Below, one piece after another: positions 5,764-64,000 of a stretch of DNA of 64,000 nt (position 1 is its first letter; the number at the start of each line of letters is the position of its first letter). This stretch comes from an uncultured Mycoplasmatota bacterium (GTDB lineage Bacteria; Bacillota_I; Bacilli_A; RF39; UBA660). The translations under genes and the position numbers were made by a program. The notes under the pieces are model-generated. The model was given only the letters and a program-made list of their open reading frames with translations. It searched no databases and was not told the origin of the DNA. The DNA lies in the NCBI GenBank assembly GCA_900542735.1, contig UQOS01000003.1, forward strand, positions 6,821 through 70,820. Reading direction: 5' to 3'.

Positions 5764-6828
5764 ATGTTAGAAAGACTAGAAGTAATTGAAAAAAGATATG
5801 ATGAAATTCAAAAAGAATTATCTAATCCTGATGTTTACAGTAACATGAATAAAATGAAATCTCTATCAAAAGAAGCAAGTGACTTAGAAGAAACTGTAAA
5901 TGCTTATCATGAGTATAAAAAGATTTTATCAGGAATAGAAGATACCAAAGAAATGATAAAAGATCCTGAAATGGGTGAGTTAGCAAAAGAAGAATTAGTA
6001 AACTTGGAATCTGAGAAAACTAAATTAGAAGAAAAAATAGAAGTTTTATTAATTCCTAAAGATCCTAACGATAGTAAAAATGTTATTGTGGAAATTCGTG
6101 GAGCAGCTGGTGGAGATGAAGCCAATATCTTTGCTGGTGATTTATATAGAATGTATTCAAGATATGCTGAAAAACAAGGATTTAAAATTGAATTAATTGA
6201 TGCTGAAGAAGGCGCTTCTGGGGGATTTTCTCAAATAGAATTCATGGTAAAAGGAGAAGGCGCTTATTCAAAACTAAAATATGAAAGTGGTTCTCATCGT
6301 GTTCAAAGAGTCCCAGAAACAGAATCACAAGGAAGAATTCAAACCTCAACTGCAACAGTATTAGTAATGCCAGAAGCAGAAGATGTAAACATTGAAATCA
6401 ATCCAAGTGACTTAAGAATTGATATATATCGTTCTTCAGGTTGTGGTGGACAAGGAGTAAATACTACCGATTCAGCAGTAAGAATTACCCATTTACCAAC
6501 CAATACAGTAGTTACTTGTCAAAATGAAAGAAGTCAAATTCAAAACAAGGAGCAAGCAATGAAAGTATTAAAAGCACGTCTTTATGAACAAGAACTTCAA
6601 AAACAAGAAGAAGCATTAGGTAATGAAAGAAGAAATAAAATTGGTACTGGTGATAGAGCAGAAAAAATTAGAACATATAACTACCCACAAAACAGAGTAA
6701 CAGACCATCGCATTGGTTATACCACAAACAATTTAGATAGAATTATGAATGGTGCACTTGATGAGGTAATTGAAGCTTTAATTACCGAAGATCAAAAAAG
6801 AAAGTTATCAGTAGAAAACAATGACTAA
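5764..6828 (+). CDS. prfA: Peptide chain release factor 1
   Basis: 354 aa; GGQ motif ([23 protein letters not shown]); RF-1 family PxT-region context; RBS AAGGAGGA. Confidence 0.95.
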
Positions 6829-9499: not shown

Positions 9500-10030
9500 A
9501 TGTCAATACCAGTAATTTTTATGTTAGCAGTAGGATTAAGTATGGATGCTTTTTCGTTATCTTTAATATATGGAACATTAGAATTATCAAAAAAAAGATG
9601 TAGACAAATGAGTATAATTGTAGGAATATTCCACTTTATTATGCCAATTCTTGGGTATCAAATAGGAGAACTTATTTTAAGATTTATCAAAATAAACCCA
9701 GATATTTTAGTAGGAATTATTTTTATAATATTAGGGTTAGAAATGATACTATCCCTAAAAAAAGAAGATAATATAAAATTATTAACCAGTTTAATATCTG
9801 TTATTATTTTTGCGTTTACGGTAAGTATAGATAGTTTCTCAATTGGTACTTGTTTTGGTTTTTCAAATTCTAAGATTTTATTACCATGTTTTATTTTCTC
9901 TATCACAAGTAGCTTATTTACTTATCTTGGCGTAATCCTTGGAAAAAAACTATCTACCAAATTTGGTAATATTACGGTAGTAATTGGATCTCTTATTTTA
10001 ATAACTTTAGGCTTAACTTACTTATTTTGA
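9500..10030 (+). CDS. MntP/YtaF-family (DUF204) membrane protein, putative manganese efflux pump or sporulation membrane protein
   Basis: 176 aa, ~6 TM; LSMDAFSLS motif near N-terminus and a repeated SIDSFSIG motif in the second half, i.e. the two DUF204 repeats. Confidence 0.6.
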   Translation: MSIPVIFMLAVGLSMDAFSLSLIYGTLELSKKRCRQMSIIVGIFHFIMPILGYQIGELILRFIKINPDILVGIIFIILGLEMILSLKKEDNIKLLTSLISVIIFAFTVSIDSFSIGTCFGFSNSKILLPCFIFSITSSLFTYLGVILGKKLSTKFGNITVVIGSLILITLGLTYLF

Positions 10031-10144
10031 CATCAATTTACGAAAATAAAGTGCTTATCTTCTAGTTTTATGTTATATTATTATTAGTATGAACGAAAGT
10101 TTAAAACTAAAATACAATATAGTAGAAGTTACTTGGAGGTAAGT

Positions 10145-11401
10145 ATGAAAGTATTAGAAATTAATGGTGGAAAACCTCTTACAGGAACCATTCGTATTAG
10201 TGGTGCTAAAAATGCATCTGTTGCTTTAATACCAGCAGCTATTTTAGCAGATAGTGAGGTAACCATCTGTAATGTTCCTGAAATCACAGATACTGATGCC
10301 CTAACTGAAATTTTAGAATATTTAGGAGCAACAGTAAAAAGAGCAAGTGAAAGTGTTTTAATTAATCCAACTACAATTGAAAACAAAGAAATTCCTAAAG
10401 AATTATCAACAAAGCTTCGTGCTTCTTACTATTTTATGGCAGCATTACTTGGTAAATATAAATATGTTGAAATGTATTTTCCAGGTGGGTGCAATATAGG
10501 AGCAAGACCAATCGACCAAACTTTAAAAAGTTTTAGAGCACTAGGAGCAACTGTAGAAGAAGACAACAACAAATATAAAATTTATGCTGATAAATTAAAA
10601 GGTGCCCATATTTACTTAGATATGCCAAGTGTTGGTGCAACCATTAATGCTATGCTAGCATCTGTTAAAGCAGAAGGTGAAACCACAATAGAAAATGCAG
10701 CAAAAGAACCAGAAGTTGTAAATGTGGCAGTATTTTTAAATGGAATGGGTGCTAAAATTACTGGTGCTGGAACTAGTGAAATAAAAATTAAAGGAGTAAA
10801 TTCTCTAAAAGGATGTTATACAGAAGTAATACCAGATAGAATAGAAGCTGGAACATATGTAATAGCTGGAGCTTTAATGGGAGAAAAATTAAAAATTGAT
10901 AACATTATTCCTGAACATATTGAAATGCTAACTTTAAAACTAAAAGAAATGGGAGTTCCTATTAATATTGGTCCTGACTATATCATAGTATCAAAAGGAA
11001 ACAATTTAAAACCAGTTAGTATTAAGACACAAGGCTATCCTGGATTTGCAACCGATTTGCAACAACCAGTAACAACCCTTTTAACGCAATGTGAGGGAAC
11101 TTCTACTTTAGAAGAAACAATTTATGAAAATAGATTCCAAAATGTACCATATTTAAATAAATTAGGTGCAAATATCGAAATTGATGAAAAACAAATTCAT
11201 ATCAAAGGAAAAACAGAATTAGTAGGAACAACAGTAGAAGCAACTGATTTAAGAGCAGGTGCTTGTCTAGTATTAGCAGGATTACTTGCTAGTGGTACTA
11301 CCAAAGTCGCAAATATTGAGCATGTATTAAGAGGTTATGAAAATATTGTTCAAAAATTAACCGATGTAGGAGCAGATATTAAGTTAAAAGAAGAAAATTA
11401 A
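10145..11401 (+). CDS. murA: UDP-N-acetylglucosamine 1-carboxyvinyltransferase
   Basis: 418 aa from ATG 10145 (RBS GGAGG 10135-10139; track used TTG 10133). Active-site Cys loop FPGGCNIGARPID; EPSP-synthase fold motifs. Confidence 0.95.
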   Translation: MKVLEINGGKPLTGTIRISGAKNASVALIPAAILADSEVTICNVPEITDTDALTEILEYLGATVKRASESVLINPTTIENKEIPKELSTKLRASYYFMAALLGKYKYVEMYFPGGCNIGARPIDQTLKSFRALGATVEEDNNKYKIYADKLKGAHIYLDMPSVGATINAMLASVKAEGETTIENAAKEPEVVNVAVFLNGMGAKITGAGTSEIKIKGVNSLKGCYTEVIPDRIEAGTYVIAGALMGEKLKIDNIIPEHIEMLTLKLKEMGVPINIGPDYIIVSKGNNLKPVSIKTQGYPGFATDLQQPVTTLLTQCEGTSTLEETIYENRFQNVPYLNKLGANIEIDEKQIHIKGKTELVGTTVEATDLRAGACLVLAGLLASGTTKVANIEHVLRGYENIVQKLTDVGADIKLKEEN

Positions 11402-11453
11402 TCTTCTTTTTTTCTTTTTTGTGGTATAATATGTGGCACAAAGGAGAAAGACT

Positions 11454-12260
11454 ATGAACTGGAATGATGTTACTAATAAATTAGTAGAAATAGAAAACCT
11501 ACAACAACTTTTAACCATAAAAATATCAGACTCTAAAAGTAAAGAAATAATAGCTAGGTACAATAAGTATCATGACATAACAAAAGACAGTATAAATAAA
11601 TTAAACAATGCAGTTTTAGAAAATCGGATTAGAAAAACTCCTTTTCAATTTATTTTACTATCAGTAGTTATGAATAAAAAAATTCCGCTTACTATGGAAG
11701 AAATATATGATAGTATGAGTGATAATTTAGAAACAACTATCAGTTATTTAAATAATCTTCAAAAAAAGTATGAAGATATGATTAAAATTTTTGATATTGT
11801 TTTCAAAATAGAAGAACTATCACAAATAGAGCTTACAACAGTTACTGATTATGAAAATGGAGTATATATAAAAGTATTAAATAAATATAATGCAGCTTTC
11901 TTAGAATTTTTACAGCAAGATGTAAAAGAATCTGCTTCGCTTATCAAGAATACCACTAAAGAATTAATGGAAAATTTAAGTAAAAATGAAAGAAGTAAGC
12001 TATTACAAGAAATGATTCCGTTATCATATGATCGAAACGCTTTTACATACATAGACGAAATAAAAACAGTTAAGAGTATTTATAAAAATCCAACAGTTCC
12101 ATTAAGAGATGAATTATATATTTACAAATTACTCCTATATTTTAAAGAAACTGTCTATATTTCCTTAGAGGAATACTTTAGTAAGCAAGATATTTCTAAA
12201 CTTATATCTTTCTTTGAAGAAGTATTATCTATTAAAGAAGATAAAATAAAAAAAGTCTAA
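11454..12260 (+). CDS. Hypothetical protein
   Basis: ORF from ATG 11454 with RBS AAGGAGAAAG; extended -10 TGGTATAAT at 11422-11430. No family recognised. Confidence 0.4.
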   Translation: MNWNDVTNKLVEIENLQQLLTIKISDSKSKEIIARYNKYHDITKDSINKLNNAVLENRIRKTPFQFILLSVVMNKKIPLTMEEIYDSMSDNLETTISYLNNLQKKYEDMIKIFDIVFKIEELSQIELTTVTDYENGVYIKVLNKYNAAFLEFLQQDVKESASLIKNTTKELMENLSKNERSKLLQEMIPLSYDRNAFTYIDEIKTVKSIYKNPTVPLRDELYIYKLLLYFKETVYISLEEYFSKQDISKLISFFEEVLSIKEDKIKKV

Positions 12261-17517: not shown

Positions 17518-18609
17518 ATGTTTGAAAGTGAAATGATAACTTCTTTCAAAATGGTTTTTATTACTTTTATTGTTAGTGCCTTAATTATGCCTATTATGAA
17601 AAAAATAGCACATCATATAGGGGCCATTGATATTCCAAGACAAGATGAAGGTAATAGACATATTCATAAAAAACCAATTCCTAAATTAGGTGGTGTTGGT
17701 ATCTTTTTAGCCTTTTTATTTGGTTATATGTTATTTGGCCAACACAGTATTAAAATGAATGCTATTTTAATAGGAAGTTTTATTATTATTTTAACAGGAA
17801 TGATAGATGATATTAATGATTTAAGGGCATCACGCCAATTAATAGCTCAATTTTTAGCTGCATCAGTTATTGTATTTTATGGTGGTATTGTTTTAACAGA
17901 TATAACGGCGTTTGGACTTCATATTGAATTTGGTATTTTTTCAAAATTAATGACGATATTATTTATAATTGGTTGTATTAATATTATCAATTTTACAGAT
18001 GGTTTAGATGGCTTAAGTGGTGGAGTAACTTCTATTTTTTATATTACTACTGCGATTATTTGTTTTTATCAAGGAAGACTTGGAACTTTGGAAATGACTT
18101 TAACTTTATTAATGTTAGGTGCAACACTTGGTTTCTTAGTTCATAATTTTTATCCAGCTAAAATCTTTGCCGGACAGTGCAGTATGTTTATGGGATTTAT
18201 GATTTCCATTATTTGTTTATTAGGTTTTAAAGGGACAGCTCTTACATCACTATTTGTACCACTAGCAATTCTAGGATTACCAATTCTAGATACTCTATTT
18301 GCAATTATAAGAAGAACATTAAAGGGTCAACCAATATTTAGTGCTGATAAATCACATATCCATCATCAAATATTAGGTATGAATTTTTCACACAGAGCAA
18401 CTGTTTTAATTGTTTATTTAATTAATATACTATTTGCACTCACTTCAATTTTCTATGTGTTAAAGGACCCATTGGCTGCCAAAGTAATTTATGTTATTCT
18501 CACAGTAATTGTAGTATGGTTTGTTTGTTATACTAATATTATTACTGAAAAAAAACCACCAAAGCTAAAAGATATAAAAAATAAAATACATAAAAGGAAA
18601 AAGAAGTAG
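17518..18609 (+). CDS. tagO: Undecaprenyl-phosphate GlcNAc-1-phosphate transferase (WecA/TagO, MraY-like polyprenyl-phosphate sugar-phosphate transferase)
   Basis: 363 aa, ~10 TM; MraY/WecA motifs (DDINDL, NFTDGLDGL; HHQ motif IHHQILG); RBS GAGGTGGAAG. Confidence 0.8.
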   Translation: MFESEMITSFKMVFITFIVSALIMPIMKKIAHHIGAIDIPRQDEGNRHIHKKPIPKLGGVGIFLAFLFGYMLFGQHSIKMNAILIGSFIIILTGMIDDINDLRASRQLIAQFLAASVIVFYGGIVLTDITAFGLHIEFGIFSKLMTILFIIGCINIINFTDGLDGLSGGVTSIFYITTAIICFYQGRLGTLEMTLTLLMLGATLGFLVHNFYPAKIFAGQCSMFMGFMISIICLLGFKGTALTSLFVPLAILGLPILDTLFAIIRRTLKGQPIFSADKSHIHHQILGMNFSHRATVLIVYLINILFALTSIFYVLKDPLAAKVIYVILTVIVVWFVCYTNIITEKKPPKLKDIKNKIHKRKKK

Positions 18610-18647: not shown

Positions 18648-19403
18648 ATGTTAAATTTTATTATTTATGAAGATGAAAAAAAGTTTAGAGAAAAATATAT
18701 CTCAGTTATTTTAAGATTATTAGGTAGTAAAAAAATTGCTTATAAGATCATAGAGTATGATAAGTATGAATCTGGTATTATTACGAATCTAAAAAAACTT
18801 ATTGGAAAGAAAATATTTATTTTTGATATTGAAGTACCAGATAAGTCAGGACTAGATTTAGCACGTGAAATAAGAAATAGTGGTGATTGGAGTAGTCCTA
18901 TGATTGTAGTAACAACGCATGAACACTTAAAAAATGCCACTTTTACTAGTAGAATGTTAATGCTAGACTTTATTTCTAAGTTTTATAATTGTGAAGAAAA
19001 TTTAAAATCAGCTTTACTAGTAGCTTTAGAAATTGTCGATAATCAACATTCTTTGAATTTTCAATACAATGGTGAATTAGTACAAATACCATTTGATGAT
19101 ATTTTATTTATCGAAAAGAATGTAGATGATTTATATTCAACTGTAGTTACAAGGCATGATAGATATATTATCAAACAAACAATTAGTAAAATTGAAAAGG
19201 ACTTAAGTCAAGATGAAAGATTCTTTAAAACACACAGAAGTTGTATTGTAAATGTAGATAAGATTACAAGTGTGGAATTAAGAGAATGCATCATTCATTT
19301 TGGACATACTGAGATAATATCATTACTATCTAGAGAAAAGAAAAATGAATTAAAAGCATTATTAAGTAAAAAAGGTGTAGTAATAAAGGATGGTGTAAGA
19401 TGA
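18648..19403 (+). CDS. LytTR-family response regulator (AgrA-like)
   Basis: N-terminal receiver (FIFDIEVPDKSGLDLAREIR) and C-terminal LytTR domain (FFKTHRSCIVNVDKI); stop overlaps the kinase start (ATGA). Confidence 0.85.
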   Translation: MLNFIIYEDEKKFREKYISVILRLLGSKKIAYKIIEYDKYESGIITNLKKLIGKKIFIFDIEVPDKSGLDLAREIRNSGDWSSPMIVVTTHEHLKNATFTSRMLMLDFISKFYNCEENLKSALLVALEIVDNQHSLNFQYNGELVQIPFDDILFIEKNVDDLYSTVVTRHDRYIIKQTISKIEKDLSQDERFFKTHRSCIVNVDKITSVELRECIIHFGHTEIISLLSREKKNELKALLSKKGVVIKDGVR

Positions 19404-20719
19404 AGTTTTTAGAGTTATTCATAGATTCTGCTATTATGTGGACTACATTTTATTTAATTGGAAGAATATTATTTGAAGAAACAAAAAAAACCAATTACAT
19501 TAAATTAGTTCCTATGATTATGCTTTTTTCATACATATTAGCACACATAAATTATGTGAATTCAGAAATATTAAATGGTATTATAAAAATTATATGTGTG
19601 TATAGTTTGTATTGTGCATTTTATAAAATTATATTTAAAAAAGAACTATCTAAAGTTCTAGTAGCATCATTAATATTATATTTATGTCTATGTGCATCAG
19701 AAGTAGTAATGGTAATAATTGCAGGAATTGTTTTGGAAATAATGGGTAAACCTATGTCAATTATGAAAAATAGTATTGTTATGAATTTTCTTATAGCTTT
19801 GTTTGAATATATAATAATTTTTAAATTAAAAGATAAATTGACATCTATCGTTAAAGATAATAATTTAGGTAAAAAAAGTGGTATCATAGTTATTTTTATT
19901 GTATTAATTACATTGGCATTACTAAAATTTAAAATGCCATTATCAAAGTGGAGTATTGATACAGAATTTATAATTACTATGATAATATTATTATCGTTTT
20001 GTATAGTTGGTATATTTATGATAAAGCAAAACTCAGATATTCAAAAAACAACATCAAAATACCAAAAATTAGTAGACTATTCTGATATAACTAATGACCT
20101 ATTGGAAGATTATAGAGTTATTTCTCATGAACAGAAAAACCAATTGTTAGTAATTAGAAGTTTGTTGGATGATAATTCTCCTCAAGAATTAGTAGACTAC
20201 GTAGATGGATTATTAGATAAAAAAGTAGGTTTTAAATATGAATGGATTGGAGATTTGACTCATCTGCCACTATCAGGATTAAAAGGATTAATTAATTACA
20301 AGTTAATTGAGGCAAATTCATTAAAAATTGATACAAACATTTCTATAAGTAAAGACATTGATAAATTAAAATTAAACAAATTATCATCAAAACAAAAAGA
20401 CGAATTATATAGTATAATAGGTGTATACTTAGATAATGCCATTCAAGCAGCAAAAGAAAGTAATAAGAAAGAAGTTAGTTTGGAAATCTATAAAGAAAAT
20501 GAAAAAGTAGTTATCGTAATAGCTAATACCTATGATGGAAAGATAGATTTTGAAAAATTAGATAACTATGGTTATACAACAAAAGGCAAAAATCATGGAG
20601 TAGGCTTGCACTTAGTTAAAAAAATAATTGAGAATGAAGTAATATATTCTCAATCACGTAGTTTATTTGAAGACTATTATGTACAGAAGCTAATTATTGA
20701 TTTATCAGGAATAAAATAA
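19400..20719 (+). CDS. AgrC-like (HPK10) membrane sensor histidine kinase
   Basis: ~6-7 N-terminal TM helices; H-box region ISHEQKNQLLVIRSLL; GHKL ATPase N/G boxes (LDNAIQAAKE; GYTTKGKNHGVGLHLVKKI). Partner of the upstream LytTR regulator. Confidence 0.8.
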   Translation: MKFLELFIDSAIMWTTFYLIGRILFEETKKTNYIKLVPMIMLFSYILAHINYVNSEILNGIIKIICVYSLYCAFYKIIFKKELSKVLVASLILYLCLCASEVVMVIIAGIVLEIMGKPMSIMKNSIVMNFLIALFEYIIIFKLKDKLTSIVKDNNLGKKSGIIVIFIVLITLALLKFKMPLSKWSIDTEFIITMIILLSFCIVGIFMIKQNSDIQKTTSKYQKLVDYSDITNDLLEDYRVISHEQKNQLLVIRSLLDDNSPQELVDYVDGLLDKKVGFKYEWIGDLTHLPLSGLKGLINYKLIEANSLKIDTNISISKDIDKLKLNKLSSKQKDELYSIIGVYLDNAIQAAKESNKKEVSLEIYKENEKVVIVIANTYDGKIDFEKLDNYGYTTKGKNHGVGLHLVKKIIENEVIYSQSRSLFEDYYVQKLIIDLSGIK

Positions 20720-20720
20720 A

Positions 20721-20745
20721 AAAGCTACCTAACGGTAGTCTTTTT
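20721..20745. terminator. Bidirectional hairpin shared by the convergent kinase gene and agrD
   Basis: AGCTACC-taac-GGTAG(t)CT flanked by A-run on one side and T-run on the other; lies between the kinase stop (20719) and the agrD stop (20744). Confidence 0.5.
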
Positions 20746-20869
20746 ATCTTTCAATCATCTCTTTAGACATTTCAGGTTCATCTATAACTAAACATACACA
20801 AGCTGAAGTTGCAGCACCAGCAGCTAAGATACCAAGTCCAGAAAGAACCATAGCGAATAATTTTTTCAT
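20744..20869 (-). CDS. agrD: AgrD-like autoinducing-peptide precursor (41 aa)
   Basis: Not in ORF track (too short). Minus-strand ATG 20869 with RBS GGGGAA 7 nt upstream. Product MKKLFAMVLSGLGILAAGAATSACVCLVIDEPEMSKEMIER has an N-terminal amphipathic leader, central Cys-containing core (ACVCLVI) and an acidic D-E-P-E tail like AgrD recognition tails (S. aureus DEVEVPKEL). It sits 19 nt downstream of agrB. Confidence 0.75.
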   Translation of the reverse strand: MKKLFAMVLSGLGILAAGAATSACVCLVIDEPEMSKEMIER

Positions 20870-20888
20870 ACATTTTCCCCTTTCACTT

Positions 20889-21494
20889 CTATTTACTAAA
20901 AACATACCCCTCATAATTCTTATATGGTAATTTAAACACCCTATAAGTAAGAGGATGTATTAGTACAGCTTCAAGTAACATACTACACATAATAACATTT
21001 CTTAAAAACATACTATTTGTGTAGAAGTAAAGTAATATATATATAACTGCAACGGTAATTGTTAATAATTTAAATTTAATTCTTCTGTTTTTTCTAACAA
21101 GAGGTCTTTTTTTGGTATCAGCAGGAGCATATAATAAAAAACATATAAATGTAACTGCTAAAACAAAATATTGAATAACTAATGGCATGTTGAGATGCAA
21201 ACAAACATAAGGAAGCCCTATAAATAATAATGAAGAAGCAATCCAGCACATCCAACTTTTAGTAGCATGAATTCCAAATGCAAATGACCTAAGCCCATTA
21301 AAAAATAATAATAATATTACTGCTTCTTTAAATAGTCCTAACAATAAAGAAACAAGTAAAATAACAACAACTTTAGTAAGAGATAAGTATATAGCTTCTA
21401 AACCATACCTGATTTCATCAAGCTTAGAACTATCGTAATCAGGATAAATATCTGTTACTAATTGTAAAGAATGATTGATAATAAATTGTTTCAT
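20889..21494 (-). CDS. agrB: AgrB-family AIP-processing membrane cysteine peptidase
   Basis: Strong similarity to S. aureus AgrB: FGIHATKSWMCWIASSLLF (catalytic His/Cys spacing) and YAPADTKKRPLVRKNRR (compare YAPAATKKKPIPVR). Start taken at ATG 21494 (MKQFII...) with RBS GGTGA 7 nt upstream; track start 21536 is less likely. Confidence 0.9.
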   Translation of the reverse strand: MKQFIINHSLQLVTDIYPDYDSSKLDEIRYGLEAIYLSLTKVVVILLVSLLLGLFKEAVILLLFFNGLRSFAFGIHATKSWMCWIASSLLFIGLPYVCLHLNMPLVIQYFVLAVTFICFLLYAPADTKKRPLVRKNRRIKFKLLTITVAVIYILLYFYTNSMFLRNVIMCSMLLEAVLIHPLTYRVFKLPYKNYEGYVFSK

Positions 21495-21616
21495 TTTTGT
21501 ATCACCATATCTTTCAATGACACTATAACACAACAAAATATCAGAAATTTCGATATTATATTCAAACGTTTATTTTTGTAGCTAGATACTAAAAAAGTTA
21601 ACTAATTACAAACTAC

Positions 21617-57719: not shown

Positions 57720-58742
57720 ATGAAAAATTTAAAGAAAAACAGTATTATTTTATTAATTATAACTTTTGTAGTTTTAGTATGTGTCCTAAAAGATGATTTT
57801 CCTAGTATTATTGAAACTCTAAAAAATGCTAATTTCTTCTGGATAGTAATCGCATTATTATGTTTTTTTATAGCAATTGCCTTTGAAGCAAGAGCTTATC
57901 AAGAAATTATACAAGGCTATGCATATAAGTATCAGTTTAAACAAGCCTATAAAATGCTATTAATTACGAAATTTTTTAACGGAATTACTCCCTTTTCTTC
58001 TGGTGGTCAACCTATGCAAATTTACATGTTAAAAAAAGATGGCGTGAGATTAACAAAAGCTACTAATATCATTATTCAAAACTTTATTATCTACCAAGCA
58101 GCCTTAGTAGCCTTTGGTCTAATCGCAATTATTATTAACTATTATTTAGAACTATTTACTGATATCACTTTATTAAAACAACTAGTAACCATAGGATTTA
58201 TAGTTAATACTCTAGTTATGGTAGGATTAATTATCATAAGTTTTAGTAGTAAATTTAATCACTTTATGATTCAAAAAGGGATTTCTATTTTAAGTAAACT
58301 AAAACTAGTAAAAAATAAAGAAGAAAAGCAAAAAGAATGGCGTGAAAAAGTAGATGACTTTCATGAAGGAGCAATTTACTTAAGACAGAATAAAGGTTTA
58401 TGTATTAGAACCTTTATCTATAATATTATTTATTTATTTTTAACTTATTTAATGCCATATTTCGTAATACTAGCCCTAGCAAAAAAAGAAGTAAACATCA
58501 CGCCACTAACATCTATTTGTGCATCAGCTTATGTCCTAATTATAGGTTCATTTGTTCCAATTCCAGGAGCAAGTGGTGGTATTGAATTTGGTTACTTAAA
58601 ATTCTTTGGTAATTTTGTAACAGGTTCACTACTAAAAGCATCACTATTAATATGGCGTAGTATTTCTTATTATCTACCAATGATAATAGGTGGAGTTTTA
58701 TTTAGTACAAATACTAGAAAGGAAGATATCAAATGCGAATAG
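57720..58742 (+). CDS. Flippase-like membrane protein (UPF0104 / lysyl-PG synthase TM-domain family)
   Basis: 340 aa, ~8 TM; family-typical motifs (FFNGITPFSSGGQPMQIYMLKK; IPGASGGIEFGY); stop overlaps next gene. Confidence 0.55.
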   Translation: MKNLKKNSIILLIITFVVLVCVLKDDFPSIIETLKNANFFWIVIALLCFFIAIAFEARAYQEIIQGYAYKYQFKQAYKMLLITKFFNGITPFSSGGQPMQIYMLKKDGVRLTKATNIIIQNFIIYQAALVAFGLIAIIINYYLELFTDITLLKQLVTIGFIVNTLVMVGLIIISFSSKFNHFMIQKGISILSKLKLVKNKEEKQKEWREKVDDFHEGAIYLRQNKGLCIRTFIYNIIYLFLTYLMPYFVILALAKKEVNITPLTSICASAYVLIIGSFVPIPGASGGIEFGYLKFFGNFVTGSLLKASLLIWRSISYYLPMIIGGVLFSTNTRKEDIKCE

Positions 58743-59977
58743 GAATATTTACAGAAACTTATACTCCATATATTAGTGGTTTAGTAACAAGTGAAGTTAT
58801 GTTAAAAAAAGGATTAGAAAAATTAGGACATGAAGTCTATGTAGTAACTGCTAATCTAGAAAGTTTTCATTATGAATATGATGAAGAAGAAAGAGTTTTA
58901 AAAGTACCAGGTATTCCTACAGGTATCTATGATTCTAGACTAACAGCAGTATACCCATTAAAAGCTGTAAATAAAATTAAAAGTTGGAATTTAGATATCA
59001 TACATTCTCAAACAGAATTTGCAATAGGAACATTTGCTAGAATCCTAGCTTATCAGTTAGATATTCCACTAGTGCACACTTATCACACTATGTATGAAGA
59101 TTATATTCACTATATTACGAAAGGTTATTTTGATAAATCTAGCAAAAAAATAGTAGAATATTTAACTCTATTTTACTGTGATAAAACAGCTACTGAGTTA
59201 ATTGTACCTACTAAAAAAACTTATGACTTATTTAAAGAAAAGTATCAAGTAGATAGAAATATTCATATCATTCCAACCGGAATTGAACTAGAGCGTTTTT
59301 ATACAGAAAATATTGATAAAAAGAAATTAGCTAGTATCAAAAGAAAAGAAAAAATAACTAAAGATGACTTTATCGCTATCTTTATTGGTAGATTAGCACA
59401 AGAAAAAAATGTAGTATTCTTATTAGATGTTATGAAAGATTTGGTACCTAGTCTTCCTAAATTAAAATTATTAATTGTTGGTGATGGTCCCGACTATGAC
59501 TTATATAAAGAAATCATAGAAAAAGACCATTTAGAAAATAATGTAATTATGACTGGAAAAGTAGCCTGGGAAGAAGTACCATATTATTATCATTTATCAG
59601 ATATCTTCTTAACAGCATCTCATACAGAAACACAAGGGTTAACAGTAATTGAAGCAATGGCATCTAGTGTAGTACCAATTTGTATTGATGATGAAAGTTT
59701 TAAAAATACCGTAATTGATGGCTTGAATGGTAGAATATTTAATAATGAAAAAGAGTGTAAAGAAATTATTACAGAGTTATATAATGATAGCGAGTTAACC
59801 AAAAAATTATCTAATCAAGCTAGAATAAACTCTGATAGATTTAGTGCTAAATACTTTGCTGAATCTGTACTTGATGTATATAAATATGCAATTGAACATA
59901 AAAAAAATCGTCACTCTTTAATTAATAAATTTGTAGATAAAGTAAAAGGTAATAAAGATGAAGTGGATAATAAATAA
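58733..59977 (+). CDS. GT4-family glycosyltransferase (likely glycolipid/diacylglycerol glycosyltransferase)
   Basis: GT-B GT4 motifs: N-terminal IGIFTETYTPYISG, C-terminal EX7E region (SHTETQGLTVIEAMASSVVPIC). Confidence 0.75.
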   Translation: MRIGIFTETYTPYISGLVTSEVMLKKGLEKLGHEVYVVTANLESFHYEYDEEERVLKVPGIPTGIYDSRLTAVYPLKAVNKIKSWNLDIIHSQTEFAIGTFARILAYQLDIPLVHTYHTMYEDYIHYITKGYFDKSSKKIVEYLTLFYCDKTATELIVPTKKTYDLFKEKYQVDRNIHIIPTGIELERFYTENIDKKKLASIKRKEKITKDDFIAIFIGRLAQEKNVVFLLDVMKDLVPSLPKLKLLIVGDGPDYDLYKEIIEKDHLENNVIMTGKVAWEEVPYYYHLSDIFLTASHTETQGLTVIEAMASSVVPICIDDESFKNTVIDGLNGRIFNNEKECKEIITELYNDSELTKKLSNQARINSDRFSAKYFAESVLDVYKYAIEHKKNRHSLINKFVDKVKGNKDEVDNK

Positions 59978-60886: not shown

Positions 60887-61660
60887 ATGAAAAAAATCAG
60901 AGTACTTATGATCGATGATAATATCGAGTTAGTAAGCATGATTAAGGAGTACTTTAATAATCACGCTAGTATTGAGATAGTATTAGAAGCAAATGATGGT
61001 GAAGAAGGACTTAGGTTAATTAGAAATAATCAGTCAGAGTATGATGTTATTATATTAGATTTAATTATGCCTAAAAGAGATGGATTATCTATATTAGAAG
61101 AAATAAAAAGAGAAGATATAGATAAAAAAATAATTATTCTAACTTCTTATAATGCTCAAGATATGATAAGAAAAGTATCAGAAATGGGAGTAAATTATTT
61201 TATATTAAAACCATTTGAACTTACAGATTTAGAAAGAAGAATTGAAGACTGTGGGGAAATAAAAGATTATTCCAATACTTCTATTGATATTTATCATAAT
61301 AATCTACAAATTTCTATTACTAAAATTCTTCATGAATTAGGAATACCTTCTCATATTAAAGGTTATCAATATATTAGAGAGGGAATCTCTATTTTATATG
61401 AAAAACCAGAAGTAATTGGTGGAATTACCAAAGAATTATACCCAGATATAGCAAGTAAATTTGATACAACAGTTTCTCGTGTAGAAAGAGCAATTCGTCA
61501 TGCAATTGAAGTAAGTTGGAATCGTGGCGACTGGGATTTAATGGAAGAAATATTTGGCCACAGTGTAGATATTGATAAAGCAAAACCTACAAATTCAGAA
61601 TTTATTGTGACTGTTGCTGATAAATTGAGACTAGAGTTTCAAAAAAACTATACAAAGTAA
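60887..61660 (+). CDS. spo0A: Sporulation master regulator Spo0A
   Basis: Receiver domain plus Spo0A-specific C-terminal domain ([15 protein letters not shown]...[35 protein letters not shown]). Confidence 0.95.
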
Positions 61661-61666
61661 ATAAAT

Positions 61667-61692
61667 GACTGAACTAGATTTCAGTCTTTTTA
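61667..61692 (+). terminator. Rho-independent terminator of spo0A
   Basis: GACTGAA-ctagat-TTCAGTC followed by TTTTTAT. Confidence 0.65.
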
Positions 61693-61833
61693 TATGAACT
61701 TTTTTAATATGAAAAAATATACTATTTATGAATTATAGCAAAAATAAACATAAAAATATTATAAATAAAAGCTTAGTGATATTGTTATTTAAAAGTTAGA
61801 ATGCTATAATTAACATGAAAGTGAGGTATAGAT

Positions 61834-63426
61834 ATGCAGGTTACCTATATAATGTTTCTAGTTTTCCTAGTTTATTTAATCGTAAAAGGAAAAAAAGCAT
61901 TGCATATGCTTCAACAAAATCTATATAATGAAAATAATAGATACTTAAAATGGATTTCAAATAATATCGCAACAGCATTTTTAAATTTAGATATCGTATC
62001 TTGTCTTTTCATAATAATAGGTTGTCTATTAAAAAATGATATTTTAATTATCTTATCAATAGCTATTTATGTAGTAGATATGATAAGAATCAAAAAAATA
62101 AGAGCAGAAGAACAAGTAAAAAAACCTCTAGTAATTACGGCTAGGGTAAAAAGATTATTAGTAACAATTTCAATTCTTTATTTAATTCCACTTGTAGTAA
62201 CACTATTAAATAATAATCTAAATTATAGTATGCTAATGGTATCATCTATTATGGTTTATTTAGAATATTTAGTTGTTTTATTAGCTAAAGTTATCAATAA
62301 GCCAGTAGAAAGATGTGTTTATTTAAAATACTATCATCAGGCACAAAAGAAATTAAAGTCAATGAGTAATCTATCTGTAATAGGAATTACAGGAAGTTAT
62401 GGTAAAACTAGTAGTAAAAATATTTTAAGTGATATTTTAAATGTAAAATATATAGCTAGACCAACTCCTAGAAATCTAAATACAGAGTATGGACTTATGA
62501 TTACAATCAATAATCATTTAGATAAATTTGATGATATATTAATTGCTGAAATGGGAGCATATAGACCAGGTGAAATTAAGAATTTATGCGATATGGTTCA
62601 CCCTAAATATGGTATTTTAACACGTGTTGGTACTGCCCATTTAGAAACTTTTAAAACAAGAGAAAATATTCAAAAAACAAAGTTTGAATTAATTGAATCC
62701 CTTCCTAGTGATGGGGTAGCCATTTTAAATAAAGATGACGAATGGCAAACAAGCTATCATCTAAAGAATAATGTAGAAGTAGTATGGATAGGAATTACGA
62801 ATCAAGATGCTGATGTTGTTGCATATAATATAAAGTGTAGTAATAAGGGAAGTACATTTGATATTAAATTTAAAGATGATGATAACTATTATCCATTTGA
62901 AACTAAATTATTAGGTAAAAACAATGTTTATAATATCTTAGCAAGTGTAGCTTTAGGTAAGAAATTAGGTATGAGTATTAATGAATTACAACAAGGTGTT
63001 AGAAAAGTAAGATCAATAGAACACCGTTTAGAGCTAAAAGACTTGGGTAATATTTATATGATAGATGATGCTTATAATTCTAATCCAGTTGGAGCAGAAA
63101 TGGCAGTTGAAGTATTAAAAATGATGCCAGGAACAAAAGTAGTTGTTACTCCAGGAATGATAGAACTTGGTGATAAACAAGAGGAATATAATGAAAAATT
63201 TGGTACAGAAATAGCTAGTGCTGCAGATTATGTAATATTAATAGGAAAAAATATTACGAAACCAATTTATAATGGATTAATAAAAGCTGGTTATAAAGAA
63301 GATAAAATATTTATTTTAAATAAGGTAGTAGATAGTTATCCATTAATTAATAAATTAAAAGAAAAAGATAAAGATATTTATGCACTATTTGAAAACGATT
63401 TGCCAGATAGTTATAACGAAGATTAA
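61834..63426 (+). CDS. murF: MurF-type UDP-MurNAc-tripeptide--D-Ala-D-Ala ligase with an atypical ~150-aa N-terminal polytopic membrane region
   Basis: Strong RBS GTGAGGT before ATG 61834. The first ~150 aa are hydrophobic (about 4 predicted TM helices). They are followed by the Mur ligase P-loop VIGITGSYGKTSSKN, the central domain and the MurF C-terminal motif IDDAYNSNP. The gene is followed by ddl. Confidence 0.75.
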   Translation: MQVTYIMFLVFLVYLIVKGKKALHMLQQNLYNENNRYLKWISNNIATAFLNLDIVSCLFIIIGCLLKNDILIILSIAIYVVDMIRIKKIRAEEQVKKPLVITARVKRLLVTISILYLIPLVVTLLNNNLNYSMLMVSSIMVYLEYLVVLLAKVINKPVERCVYLKYYHQAQKKLKSMSNLSVIGITGSYGKTSSKNILSDILNVKYIARPTPRNLNTEYGLMITINNHLDKFDDILIAEMGAYRPGEIKNLCDMVHPKYGILTRVGTAHLETFKTRENIQKTKFELIESLPSDGVAILNKDDEWQTSYHLKNNVEVVWIGITNQDADVVAYNIKCSNKGSTFDIKFKDDDNYYPFETKLLGKNNVYNILASVALGKKLGMSINELQQGVRKVRSIEHRLELKDLGNIYMIDDAYNSNPVGAEMAVEVLKMMPGTKVVVTPGMIELGDKQEEYNEKFGTEIASAADYVILIGKNITKPIYNGLIKAGYKEDKIFILNKVVDSYPLINKLKEKDKDIYALFENDLPDSYNED

Positions 63427-63440
63427 GGGAGATGTTTGAA

Positions 63441-64000
63441 ATGAAAATTAGATTAGGCGTTATTTTTGGTGGTGAAAGTGTAGAACATGAAGTAAGTATT
63501 ATTTCAGCTATACAAGCCATGAATAAAATGGATTCAGAAAAGTATGAAATTATTCCAATATATATCACGAAAGATAGACAGTGGTATACAGGCGAAATGT
63601 TAAAAGAAATAGAAACTTATAGCGATTTATCATTAATTAAAAGATATGCTAAAAATGTAGTATTATATGAAGATAATGGCAAGTTTGTATTACAGAATAA
63701 AAAAGGATTTAGAAGAATTGTAAAAGAAATCGATATGGTATTTCCAATTGTACATGGAACTAATGTAGAAGATGGTGTTTTGCAAGGCTACTTAGAATCA
63801 ATCGGTATTCCATTTGTAGGTGGAGATGTTTATGCATCAGCTGTAGGACAAGACAAAATCTTTATGAAAGAAATTTTTAGAGAAAATGATTTACCAGTTT
63901 GTGATTATGCATGGTTTTATGATACAGAATATGAAGATGATAATGAAAAAGTATTAGCCCGTGTTGAAAAGTTAACTTACCCAGTAATTATAAAACCAGC
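63441..64000 (+). CDS. ddl: D-alanine--D-alanine ligase (5' part; continues beyond window)
   Basis: MKIRLGVIFGGESVEHEVSIISA...; ATP-grasp Ddl N-terminus; RBS AAGGGAGA. Confidence 0.9.
   Translation, partial: MKIRLGVIFGGESVEHEVSIISAIQAMNKMDSEKYEIIPIYITKDRQWYTGEMLKEIETYSDLSLIKRYAKNVVLYEDNGKFVLQNKKGFRRIVKEIDMVFPIVHGTNVEDGVLQGYLESIGIPFVGGDVYASAVGQDKIFMKEIFRENDLPVCDYAWFYDTEYEDDNEKVLARVEKLTYPVIIKP

Follow-up and report, generated by a model that had tools for sequence, protein, structure and literature searches.

A membrane-anchored MurF-like ligase with a five-helix domain in place of canonical domain 1 in an uncultured Mycoplasmatota bacterium

The ligase gene and its membrane domain

We analyzed a 64,000-nucleotide stretch of contig UQOS01000003.1 (GenBank assembly GCA_900542735.1, forward-strand positions 6,821 to 70,820; here called the window) from an uncultured Mycoplasmatota bacterium. 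Positions 61834-63426 on the plus strand hold an open reading frame of 530 amino acids plus a stop codon, with an ATG start, which encodes a MurF-like Mur ligase preceded by a hydrophobic N-terminal region. The gene stands between spo0A and ddl, the gene for D-alanine--D-alanine ligase (Table 1). The canonical enzyme binds the UDP-MurNAc end of its acceptor through domain 1. An initial annotation, made from the sequence alone, described the gene as a MurF in which this domain is replaced by a membrane domain of four helices; our analysis agrees with the replacement but not with the helix count, since hydropathy and the positive-inside rule give five. The ribosome-binding site at the start codon and the downstream ddl that were described in the same annotation are both present.

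Residues ~180-476 make up the MurF-like Mur ligase portion, with its P-loop, DDAYNSNP and MxELG motifs, and the annotated succession of hydrophobic region, Mur ligase P-loop and MurF central and C-terminal domains was upheld by PF08245, PF02875 and TIGR01143. Mur_ligase_M (PF08245) matched residues 185-374 with an E value of 2.7e-38 (132.4 bits against a cut-off of 24), and Mur_ligase_C (PF02875) matched residues 397-473 with 35.2 bits (cut-off 28.4). The best NCBIfam model was TIGR01143 (murF), with an E value of 3.5e-67; the murC, murD and murE models gave E values of 1e-22 to 1e-27 on the same protein. However, the TIGR01143 match covered only profile positions 67-368 of 418, at protein residues 173-476. 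The Protein Data Bank (PDB) MurF chains 3zl8 (Thermotoga maritima) and 1gg4 (Escherichia coli) aligned from residue ~170-181 onward, and the P-loop, EMGA, AHLE, KxKxE, DDxYNxNP and MxELG were kept in these alignments. When the full-length AlphaFold2 model was searched with Foldseek, the top matches were all MurF (4qf5, 3zl8), with only ~370 columns aligned. In sequence as well as in fold, the protein is closest to MurF. It shares the central and C-terminal domains and their motifs with canonical MurF (TIGR01143; 1gg4, 3zl8, 4qf5, 4cvk), but in place of domain 1 it has a domain of five transmembrane (TM) helices, and its C-terminal tail ends in LFENDLPD, beyond the stretch covered by the murF model.

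Hydropathy analysis revealed hydrophobic segments at residues 4-18, 48-66, 70-85, 105-125 and 131-152. Lysine and arginine residues were then counted per region over 80 family members, and the positive-inside rule was applied. The mean count was 5.0 in loop 1, 5.6 in loop 2 and 5.2 in the linker, and 0.4 at the N-terminal end, 0.2 in the turn between TM2 and TM3 and 0.5 in loop 3. This positive-inside pattern indicates that the N-terminus lies outside, with the two long loops and the ligase in the cytoplasm. The full-length AlphaFold2 model, built from a 69-sequence alignment (predicted local distance difference test score [pLDDT], 88.6; predicted template modeling score [pTM], 0.79), has only helices in residues 1-176, and the helix spanning residues 144-176 is continuous into the ligase. 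The membrane domain modeled by itself gave a pLDDT of 94.9. The TM helices are variable in sequence, and the residues that are invariant across phyla sit in the cytoplasmic parts.

No Pfam family was matched in residues 1-184, and a Foldseek search of the membrane domain against the PDB gave no fold match (best E value, 1.2). In BLASTP comparisons with the canonical MurF proteins of Enterococcus faecalis and Monoglobus, nothing significant was found before query residue 179-182, a start that corresponds to residue 104-106 of the two canonical proteins. Canonical domain 1 (residues 1-~103 of canonical MurF) is absent, and the membrane domain stands instead. A normal domain 1 hidden in residues 90-180, an alternative raised in the initial annotation, was rejected on the extent of the TIGR01143 match, the helices-only AlphaFold2 model and BLASTP against canonical MurF. 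The possibility that a small gene of its own encodes domain 1 was also rejected: tblastn searches with the E. faecalis and Monoglobus domains against the window and the 80 loci described below returned chance matches only (best E value, 1.6).

An exhaustive search with residues 1-172 against 1.8 billion representative sequences retrieved 438 proteins, in which the match was always N-terminal. The full-length proteins among them were mostly 520-536 amino acids long, and the remainder were mostly contig-end fragments. Other protein contexts for the membrane domain were rejected, since it occurred nowhere but N-terminally in members of this ligase family.

Table 1. Features of the ligase locus, in window positions
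Feature	Position	Strand	Basis or remark
Terminator-like hairpin and T-run after spo0A	61667..61686	+	7-bp stem
Promoter-like TTGTTA, 17-nt spacer, TATAAT, with TG upstream of TATAAT	61782..61810	+	10/12 matches
Ribosome-binding site GAGG	61823..61826	+	7 nt 5' of ATG at 61834; read from sequence
Membrane-anchored MurF-like ligase	61834..63426	+	Pfam, NCBIfam, PDB, homologues, AlphaFold2, Foldseek
N-terminal membrane domain, residues 1-172; five TM helices and start of linker helix	61834..62349	+	Hydropathy, AlphaFold2
Cytoplasmic loop 1 motif HMLQQNLYNENNRYLKW, residues 24-40	61903..61953	+	Q27, Y31, Y37, W40 kept across phyla
Cytoplasmic loop 2 motif KKPLVITARVKRL, residues 96-108	62119..62157	+	K96, T102, R104, R107 kept across phyla
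Linker helix from TM5 to ligase, residues 153-180	62290..62373	+	P157, E159, A170 conserved; AlphaFold2
P-loop GITGSYGKTS, residues 184-193	62383..62412	+	Read in sequence
Mur ligase central (ATP-binding) domain, residues 185-374	62386..62955	+	PF08245
Mur ligase C-terminal domain, residues 397-473	63022..63252	+	PF02875
MurF-type DDAYNSNP	63064-63087	+	Inside C-terminal domain, which also holds GMIELG
C-terminal tail LFENDLPD, residues 518-525	63385..63408	+	Family-specific, invariant across phyla
ddl (D-alanine--D-alanine ligase), 5' part, cut by window end	63441..64000	+	Starts 14 nt after ligase stop

Distribution and conservation of the family

The exact protein is held in a 138-member 90% cluster. 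Whether relatives share the N-terminal extension was a point raised in the initial annotation; they do, as more than 100 full-length homologues were found at 59-99% identity. When one genome per species was scanned, a relative was present in at least 561 species genomes, and from these the 80 best loci were kept, with nearly end-to-end matches except for two cut at a contig end. Their sources include Bacilli metagenome-assembled genomes (MAGs) and a Chitinophagales MAG, along with Tissierellia ([Clostridium] ultunense, Sporosalibacterium), Clostridia (Christensenella, Peptococcaceae), Bacteroidales (Muribaculaceae, Duncaniella, Alistipes) and others. A neighbor-joining tree of the family tracks taxonomy. 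Members from cultured Tissierellia (Tepidimicrobium, Caloranaerobacter, Anaerosalibacter, Thermohalobacter and Clostridium sp. Cult1) are named MurF by NCBI.

The unusual architecture, and nothing else, speaks for an assembly or annotation artefact in which a small membrane-protein gene has been fused to a 5'-truncated murF by frameshift or misassembly. Against it, an uninterrupted architecture of 520-555 amino acids recurs in the cluster, in the homologues and in the species genomes counted above, the last of these from independent assemblies; the membrane domain occurs only with this ligase; and the junction residues P157, E159 and A170 are conserved within one continuous AlphaFold2 helix of high confidence. 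The frameshift fusion, which the initial annotation had also considered, was therefore rejected on the conservation data, and we give an artefact practically no chance of being the explanation. Because of the number of homologues and of species genomes, the architecture is far beyond chance or artefact. The initial annotation called this form of the enzyme unusual, which holds in comparison with the textbook enzyme but not in the sense of rarity, since the protein belongs to a conserved and widely distributed subfamily that is already named MurF and is understudied rather than new.

A mobile or plasmid-borne accessory gene was likewise rejected, as no match over the full length of the protein turned up in 72,556 plasmid records and the membrane domain had no match there at all. 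Many PLSDB "plasmid" records with murF are mislabelled chromosome pieces or whole chromosomes, for example NZ_CP143580.1 (E. faecalis, 747 kb) and NC_022111.1 (Prevotella, 1.77 Mb), which supplied canonical MurF sequences.

Two further observations concern the family itself. The MAG CAKOXL01 carries two members: one (L005) is 95% identical to the window protein and has no hydrolase gene of the kind described below, and the other (L008) is 62% identical and has murI and the hydrolase gene upstream. Either the gene is truly duplicated or the bin is mixed. A second protein, P0389 (461 amino acids), keeps the membrane domain and a YENDLPD tail, with the P-loop altered to GIIGHNGKTS and the DDAYNSNP region missing; judged by these motifs, this degenerate member may be a non-catalytic paralogue.

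Gene neighborhood and the hydrolase-ligase-ddl cassette

Adjoining the ligase gene are ddl in 67 of 81 loci and an alpha/beta hydrolase gene in 68 of 81. The common gene order is EstV-like hydrolase (~253 amino acids), membrane MurF and Ddl (~403 amino acids), and this cassette was found in Bacilli, Tissierellia, Clostridia and Bacteroidales (examples are L038:9096-12838 and L062:9020-12786). The best NCBIfam match of the hydrolase was always the EstV family of Helicobacter pylori, at 120-158 bits, which is under the cut-off of 300. What is known of the EstV family is limited to a short-chain "lipase" of H. pylori; the recurrence of the EstV-like hydrolase in the cassette suggests that it has a cell-wall role. 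Glutamate racemase (murI) flanks the cassette in 7 loci, and MurC is encoded upstream of it in one (L007). In a gut Bacilli MAG (L010:2116-8964), a MurL-like gene and murD lie directly upstream of the hydrolase, membrane MurF and ddl genes. The MurL-like gene scored 221 bits on the UDP-MurNAc-L-Ala-L-Glu epimerase model, under the cut-off of 700, and this locus hints at a MurD2/MurL route to D-Glu. In three loci of one Bacilli subclade (L009, L012 and L013; ligase near 10001-11600), neither ddl nor the hydrolase gene adjoins membrane MurF; the genes on either side of the ligase there encode small proteins (cluster 6) whose N-termini are prepilin-like.

Of the cassette, the window has the ligase-ddl pair alone, with spo0A and its own terminator directly upstream (60887-63426; the same in L001 and L005). 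The full 405-amino-acid Ddl, taken from a locus identical to that of the window (L001), scored 317 against a cut-off of 262 (PRK01966.1-4) and 273 against 245.65 (TIGR01205). The ddl gene is probably cotranscribed with the ligase gene, and their linkage resembles the ddl-murF arrangement of E. faecalis, where MurF is canonical. The hairpin at 61667-61686 separates spo0A from the ligase operon; 2 terminator-like sites were found, against 0.3 expected in shuffled sequences. The promoter-like site ahead of the ligase is a consensus match only, from a class whose total count was not above that in shuffles. No hydrolase gene, murI or second Mur ligase gene was found within the 64-kb window, and in the window species the EstV-like hydrolase is lost or relocated. 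The gap-pgk-...-tpi neighborhood of the window recurs in Tissierellia in the order gap-pgk-tpi-gpmI-eno-hppA-hydrolase-ligase-ddl-rnr-smpB. This gap-pgk-tpi(-gpmI-eno) synteny and the family tree that follows taxonomy are both consistent with vertical inheritance of the ligase gene as a housekeeping gene.

The gene neighborhoods also bear on the explanation that the membrane form is an accessory paralogue beside a canonical MurF. The ligase-Ddl module, joined elsewhere by the EstV-like hydrolase, would then serve a side function, such as repairing or recycling truncated stem peptides at the membrane, or supplying pentapeptide precursor specifically during sporulation or stress. The three-gene cassette looks modular and is patchy across several phyla; some carriers are Bacteroidales, relatives of which have canonical murF. 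The window gene sits just after spo0A. The murF score under its cut-off, the two family members in one MAG and the eroded motifs of P0389 point the same way. However, the tree tracks taxonomy, the synteny around the gene is that of housekeeping genes, plasmid records lack the gene, and all catalytic motifs are under strong purifying conservation. Furthermore, the linked genes include no regulator and nothing resistance-like, such as a VanX/VanY-type gene, and the H. pylori enzyme discussed below provides a precedent for an essential membrane MurF. We consider an accessory role unlikely, though it deserves to be kept in mind.

The initial annotation placed MraY near the ligase, and this was not borne out. 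The only PF00953 gene in the window (17518-18609), next to mreB and 43 kb from the ligase, is WecA/TagO-like (133.9 bits) and reached 61.9 on the mraY model, whose cut-off is 192; it was rejected as a candidate for MraY.

Other genes of the window include a bona fide murA at 10133-11401 (590 bits against a cut-off of 552). Within the glycolytic operon, between pgk and tpi, genes for a flippase-like membrane protein and a GT4 glycosyltransferase occupy 57720-59977. The former matches TIGR00374 and has weak similarity to GlcN-PG flippase and MprF; the latter is closest to monoglucosyl-diacylglycerol synthase, at 287 bits, under the cut-off of 400. An agr-like quorum-sensing set at 18648-21536, assigned by its correspondence with locus L003, consists of a LytTR response regulator (251 amino acids), a HATPase_c_5 kinase (439 amino acids) and AgrB on the minus strand.

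Relation to known ligases and the proposed function

A precedent for a membrane-embedded MurF exists in H. pylori. According to a passage in PMC9448923, which cites Blair et al. 2018, H. pylori MurF is an inner-membrane protein with four N-terminal TM domains. PMC9507126 describes it as an essential enzyme of precursor synthesis and as an interaction partner of the membrane protein Csd5, and its gene, HP0740, is 1485 bp long (PMC6501431). A product of ~494 amino acids would be too short for four TM helices plus domain 1, and from this length it is likely that domain 1 was replaced in H. pylori rather than added to. As in the present protein, a multi-pass N-terminal membrane segment directly precedes the ligase domains. 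The two proteins differ in phylum and in the number of TM helices, four as reported against five here, in a comparison of the membrane domains by description only; the H. pylori partners Csd5, Csd7 and CcmA are specific to helical cell shape. In H. pylori, HP0738 is ddlA and HP0739, between ddlA and murF, is estV; with HP0740 these would be the three families of the cassette. The membrane-form family is probably related to H. pylori MurF, and the window gene is a further member of a known, barely characterised membrane-embedded form of the enzyme.

Two other systems invite comparison. PgsB/CapB and PgsC, of poly-gamma-glutamate synthetase, combine a Mur-ligase-like amide ligase with a small multi-pass membrane component. 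Their chemistry and partners are different; the window ligase carries its membrane part in the same polypeptide, and the gene linked to it is ddl. No PgsB/CapB model was among the 25 NCBIfam matches listed for the protein, the remaining two matches having E values above 6e-4, and the neighbors of the ligase gene are spo0A and ddl, not pgsC or pgsA. MurT is a soluble subunit of lipid II isoglutaminyl synthase, the partner of GatD, and has a DUF1727 C-terminal domain. It resembles the present protein as a member of the Mur ligase family that lacks the N-terminal nucleotide-sugar-binding domain and serves a membrane step. However, the present protein scored 24.6 bits on the MurT model (NF045635), against a cut-off of 800, and its C-terminal domain is of MurF type. 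No GatD-like gene was seen among the recurrent neighbor clusters, though no screen was aimed at GatD.

The comparison with MurT leads to the explanation that D-Ala-D-Ala is added to a lipid-linked acceptor, undecaprenyl-pyrophosphate-MurNAc-tripeptide with or without GlcNAc, and not to the UDP-linked precursor. The basic cytoplasmic loops of the membrane domain would then recognize the polyprenyl-pyrophosphate end. This would fit the complete loss of the UDP-binding domain 1, which is not encoded separately, and its replacement by a membrane domain that is dedicated to this ligase and highly conserved. No solved structure shares the fold of this domain, and its invariant residues K96, R104 and R107 are placed where the membrane meets the cytoplasm; MurT, too, has no N-terminal domain and acts on lipid II. 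In contrast, the neighbors are genes of cytoplasmic steps (ddl, murI, murD and murC), no dedicated flippase or MraY variant is linked, and the protein is not of the MurT family. Should the membrane form be the only MurF of the cell, as it is in H. pylori, routine transfer of the tripeptide by MraY would be required, for which there is no evidence. We consider a lipid-linked acceptor very unlikely. The same low expectation applies to a broader proposal in which the membrane domain would be a new acceptor-recognition module and D-Ala-D-Ala would be added at the membrane in the lineages with this form (Bacilli, Tissierellia, Clostridia, Bacteroidales and possibly Campylobacterota). The substrate would be a lipid-linked MurNAc-tripeptide, or else the enzyme would work within an obligate complex and pass its product on to MraY; in either case the conserved EstV-like hydrolase would be a partner in function. 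To us this proposal seems a long shot.

The explanation that we favor, and hold to be probable, is that the protein is the membrane-tethered D-Ala-D-Ala-adding enzyme of its lineage, in which conserved loops and the linker replace domain 1 in holding the acceptor. In this view, a low-GC Bacilli lineage that forms spores has its MurF (EC 6.3.2.10) anchored in the membrane. The five helices, with the N-terminus outside, would hold the ligase domains at the cytoplasmic face via one long rigid helix, and D-Ala-D-Ala would be supplied by the product of the adjacent ddl. The two lysine- and arginine-rich cytoplasmic loops and the linker may take over the role of domain 1, with Q27, Y31, Y37 and W40 of loop 1, K96, T102, R104 and R107 of loop 2, and P157 and E159 of the linker as the candidate residues. 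Tethering might also deliver UDP-MurNAc-pentapeptide next to MraY. We favor this explanation because in the predicted topology the two conserved loops face the cytoplasm, as does the ligase, because the membrane domain is never found apart from this ligase, and because MurF is the best match by sequence and fold. The adjoining ddl, murI, MurL-like/MurD and MurC genes, the absence of plasmid copies from the records searched and the precedent of H. pylori MurF, essential, located in the inner membrane and reported with four N-terminal TM domains, argue in the same direction.

Several points weigh against this explanation. The TIGR01143 score of 227.2 bits is under the curated cut-off of 288.6, and this low score and the divergent C-terminal tail mark a distinct subfamily, as judged from sequence. 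One MAG (CAKOXL01) has two family members, L005 and L008, and other Bacteroidales have canonical murF (Bacteroides finegoldii), so that the membrane form may be a paralogue in some lineages. The searchable literature holds no activity assay of the membrane-form subfamily.

MurF is an essential and much-pursued antibiotic target that is always drawn as a soluble three-domain enzyme. In the membrane-tethered form, the domain that holds UDP-MurNAc is gone, yet the form is conserved, with invariant loop motifs, in hundreds of gut and environmental species. This raises the question of how the membrane form recognizes its acceptor and whether tethering couples the enzyme to MraY. Inhibitors aimed at the cleft between domains 1 and 2 of canonical MurF may not apply to the bacteria that carry this form. 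If the membrane domain were indeed a new acceptor-recognition module, the last "cytoplasmic" step of peptidoglycan precursor synthesis would move to the membrane in a sizeable part of bacteria.

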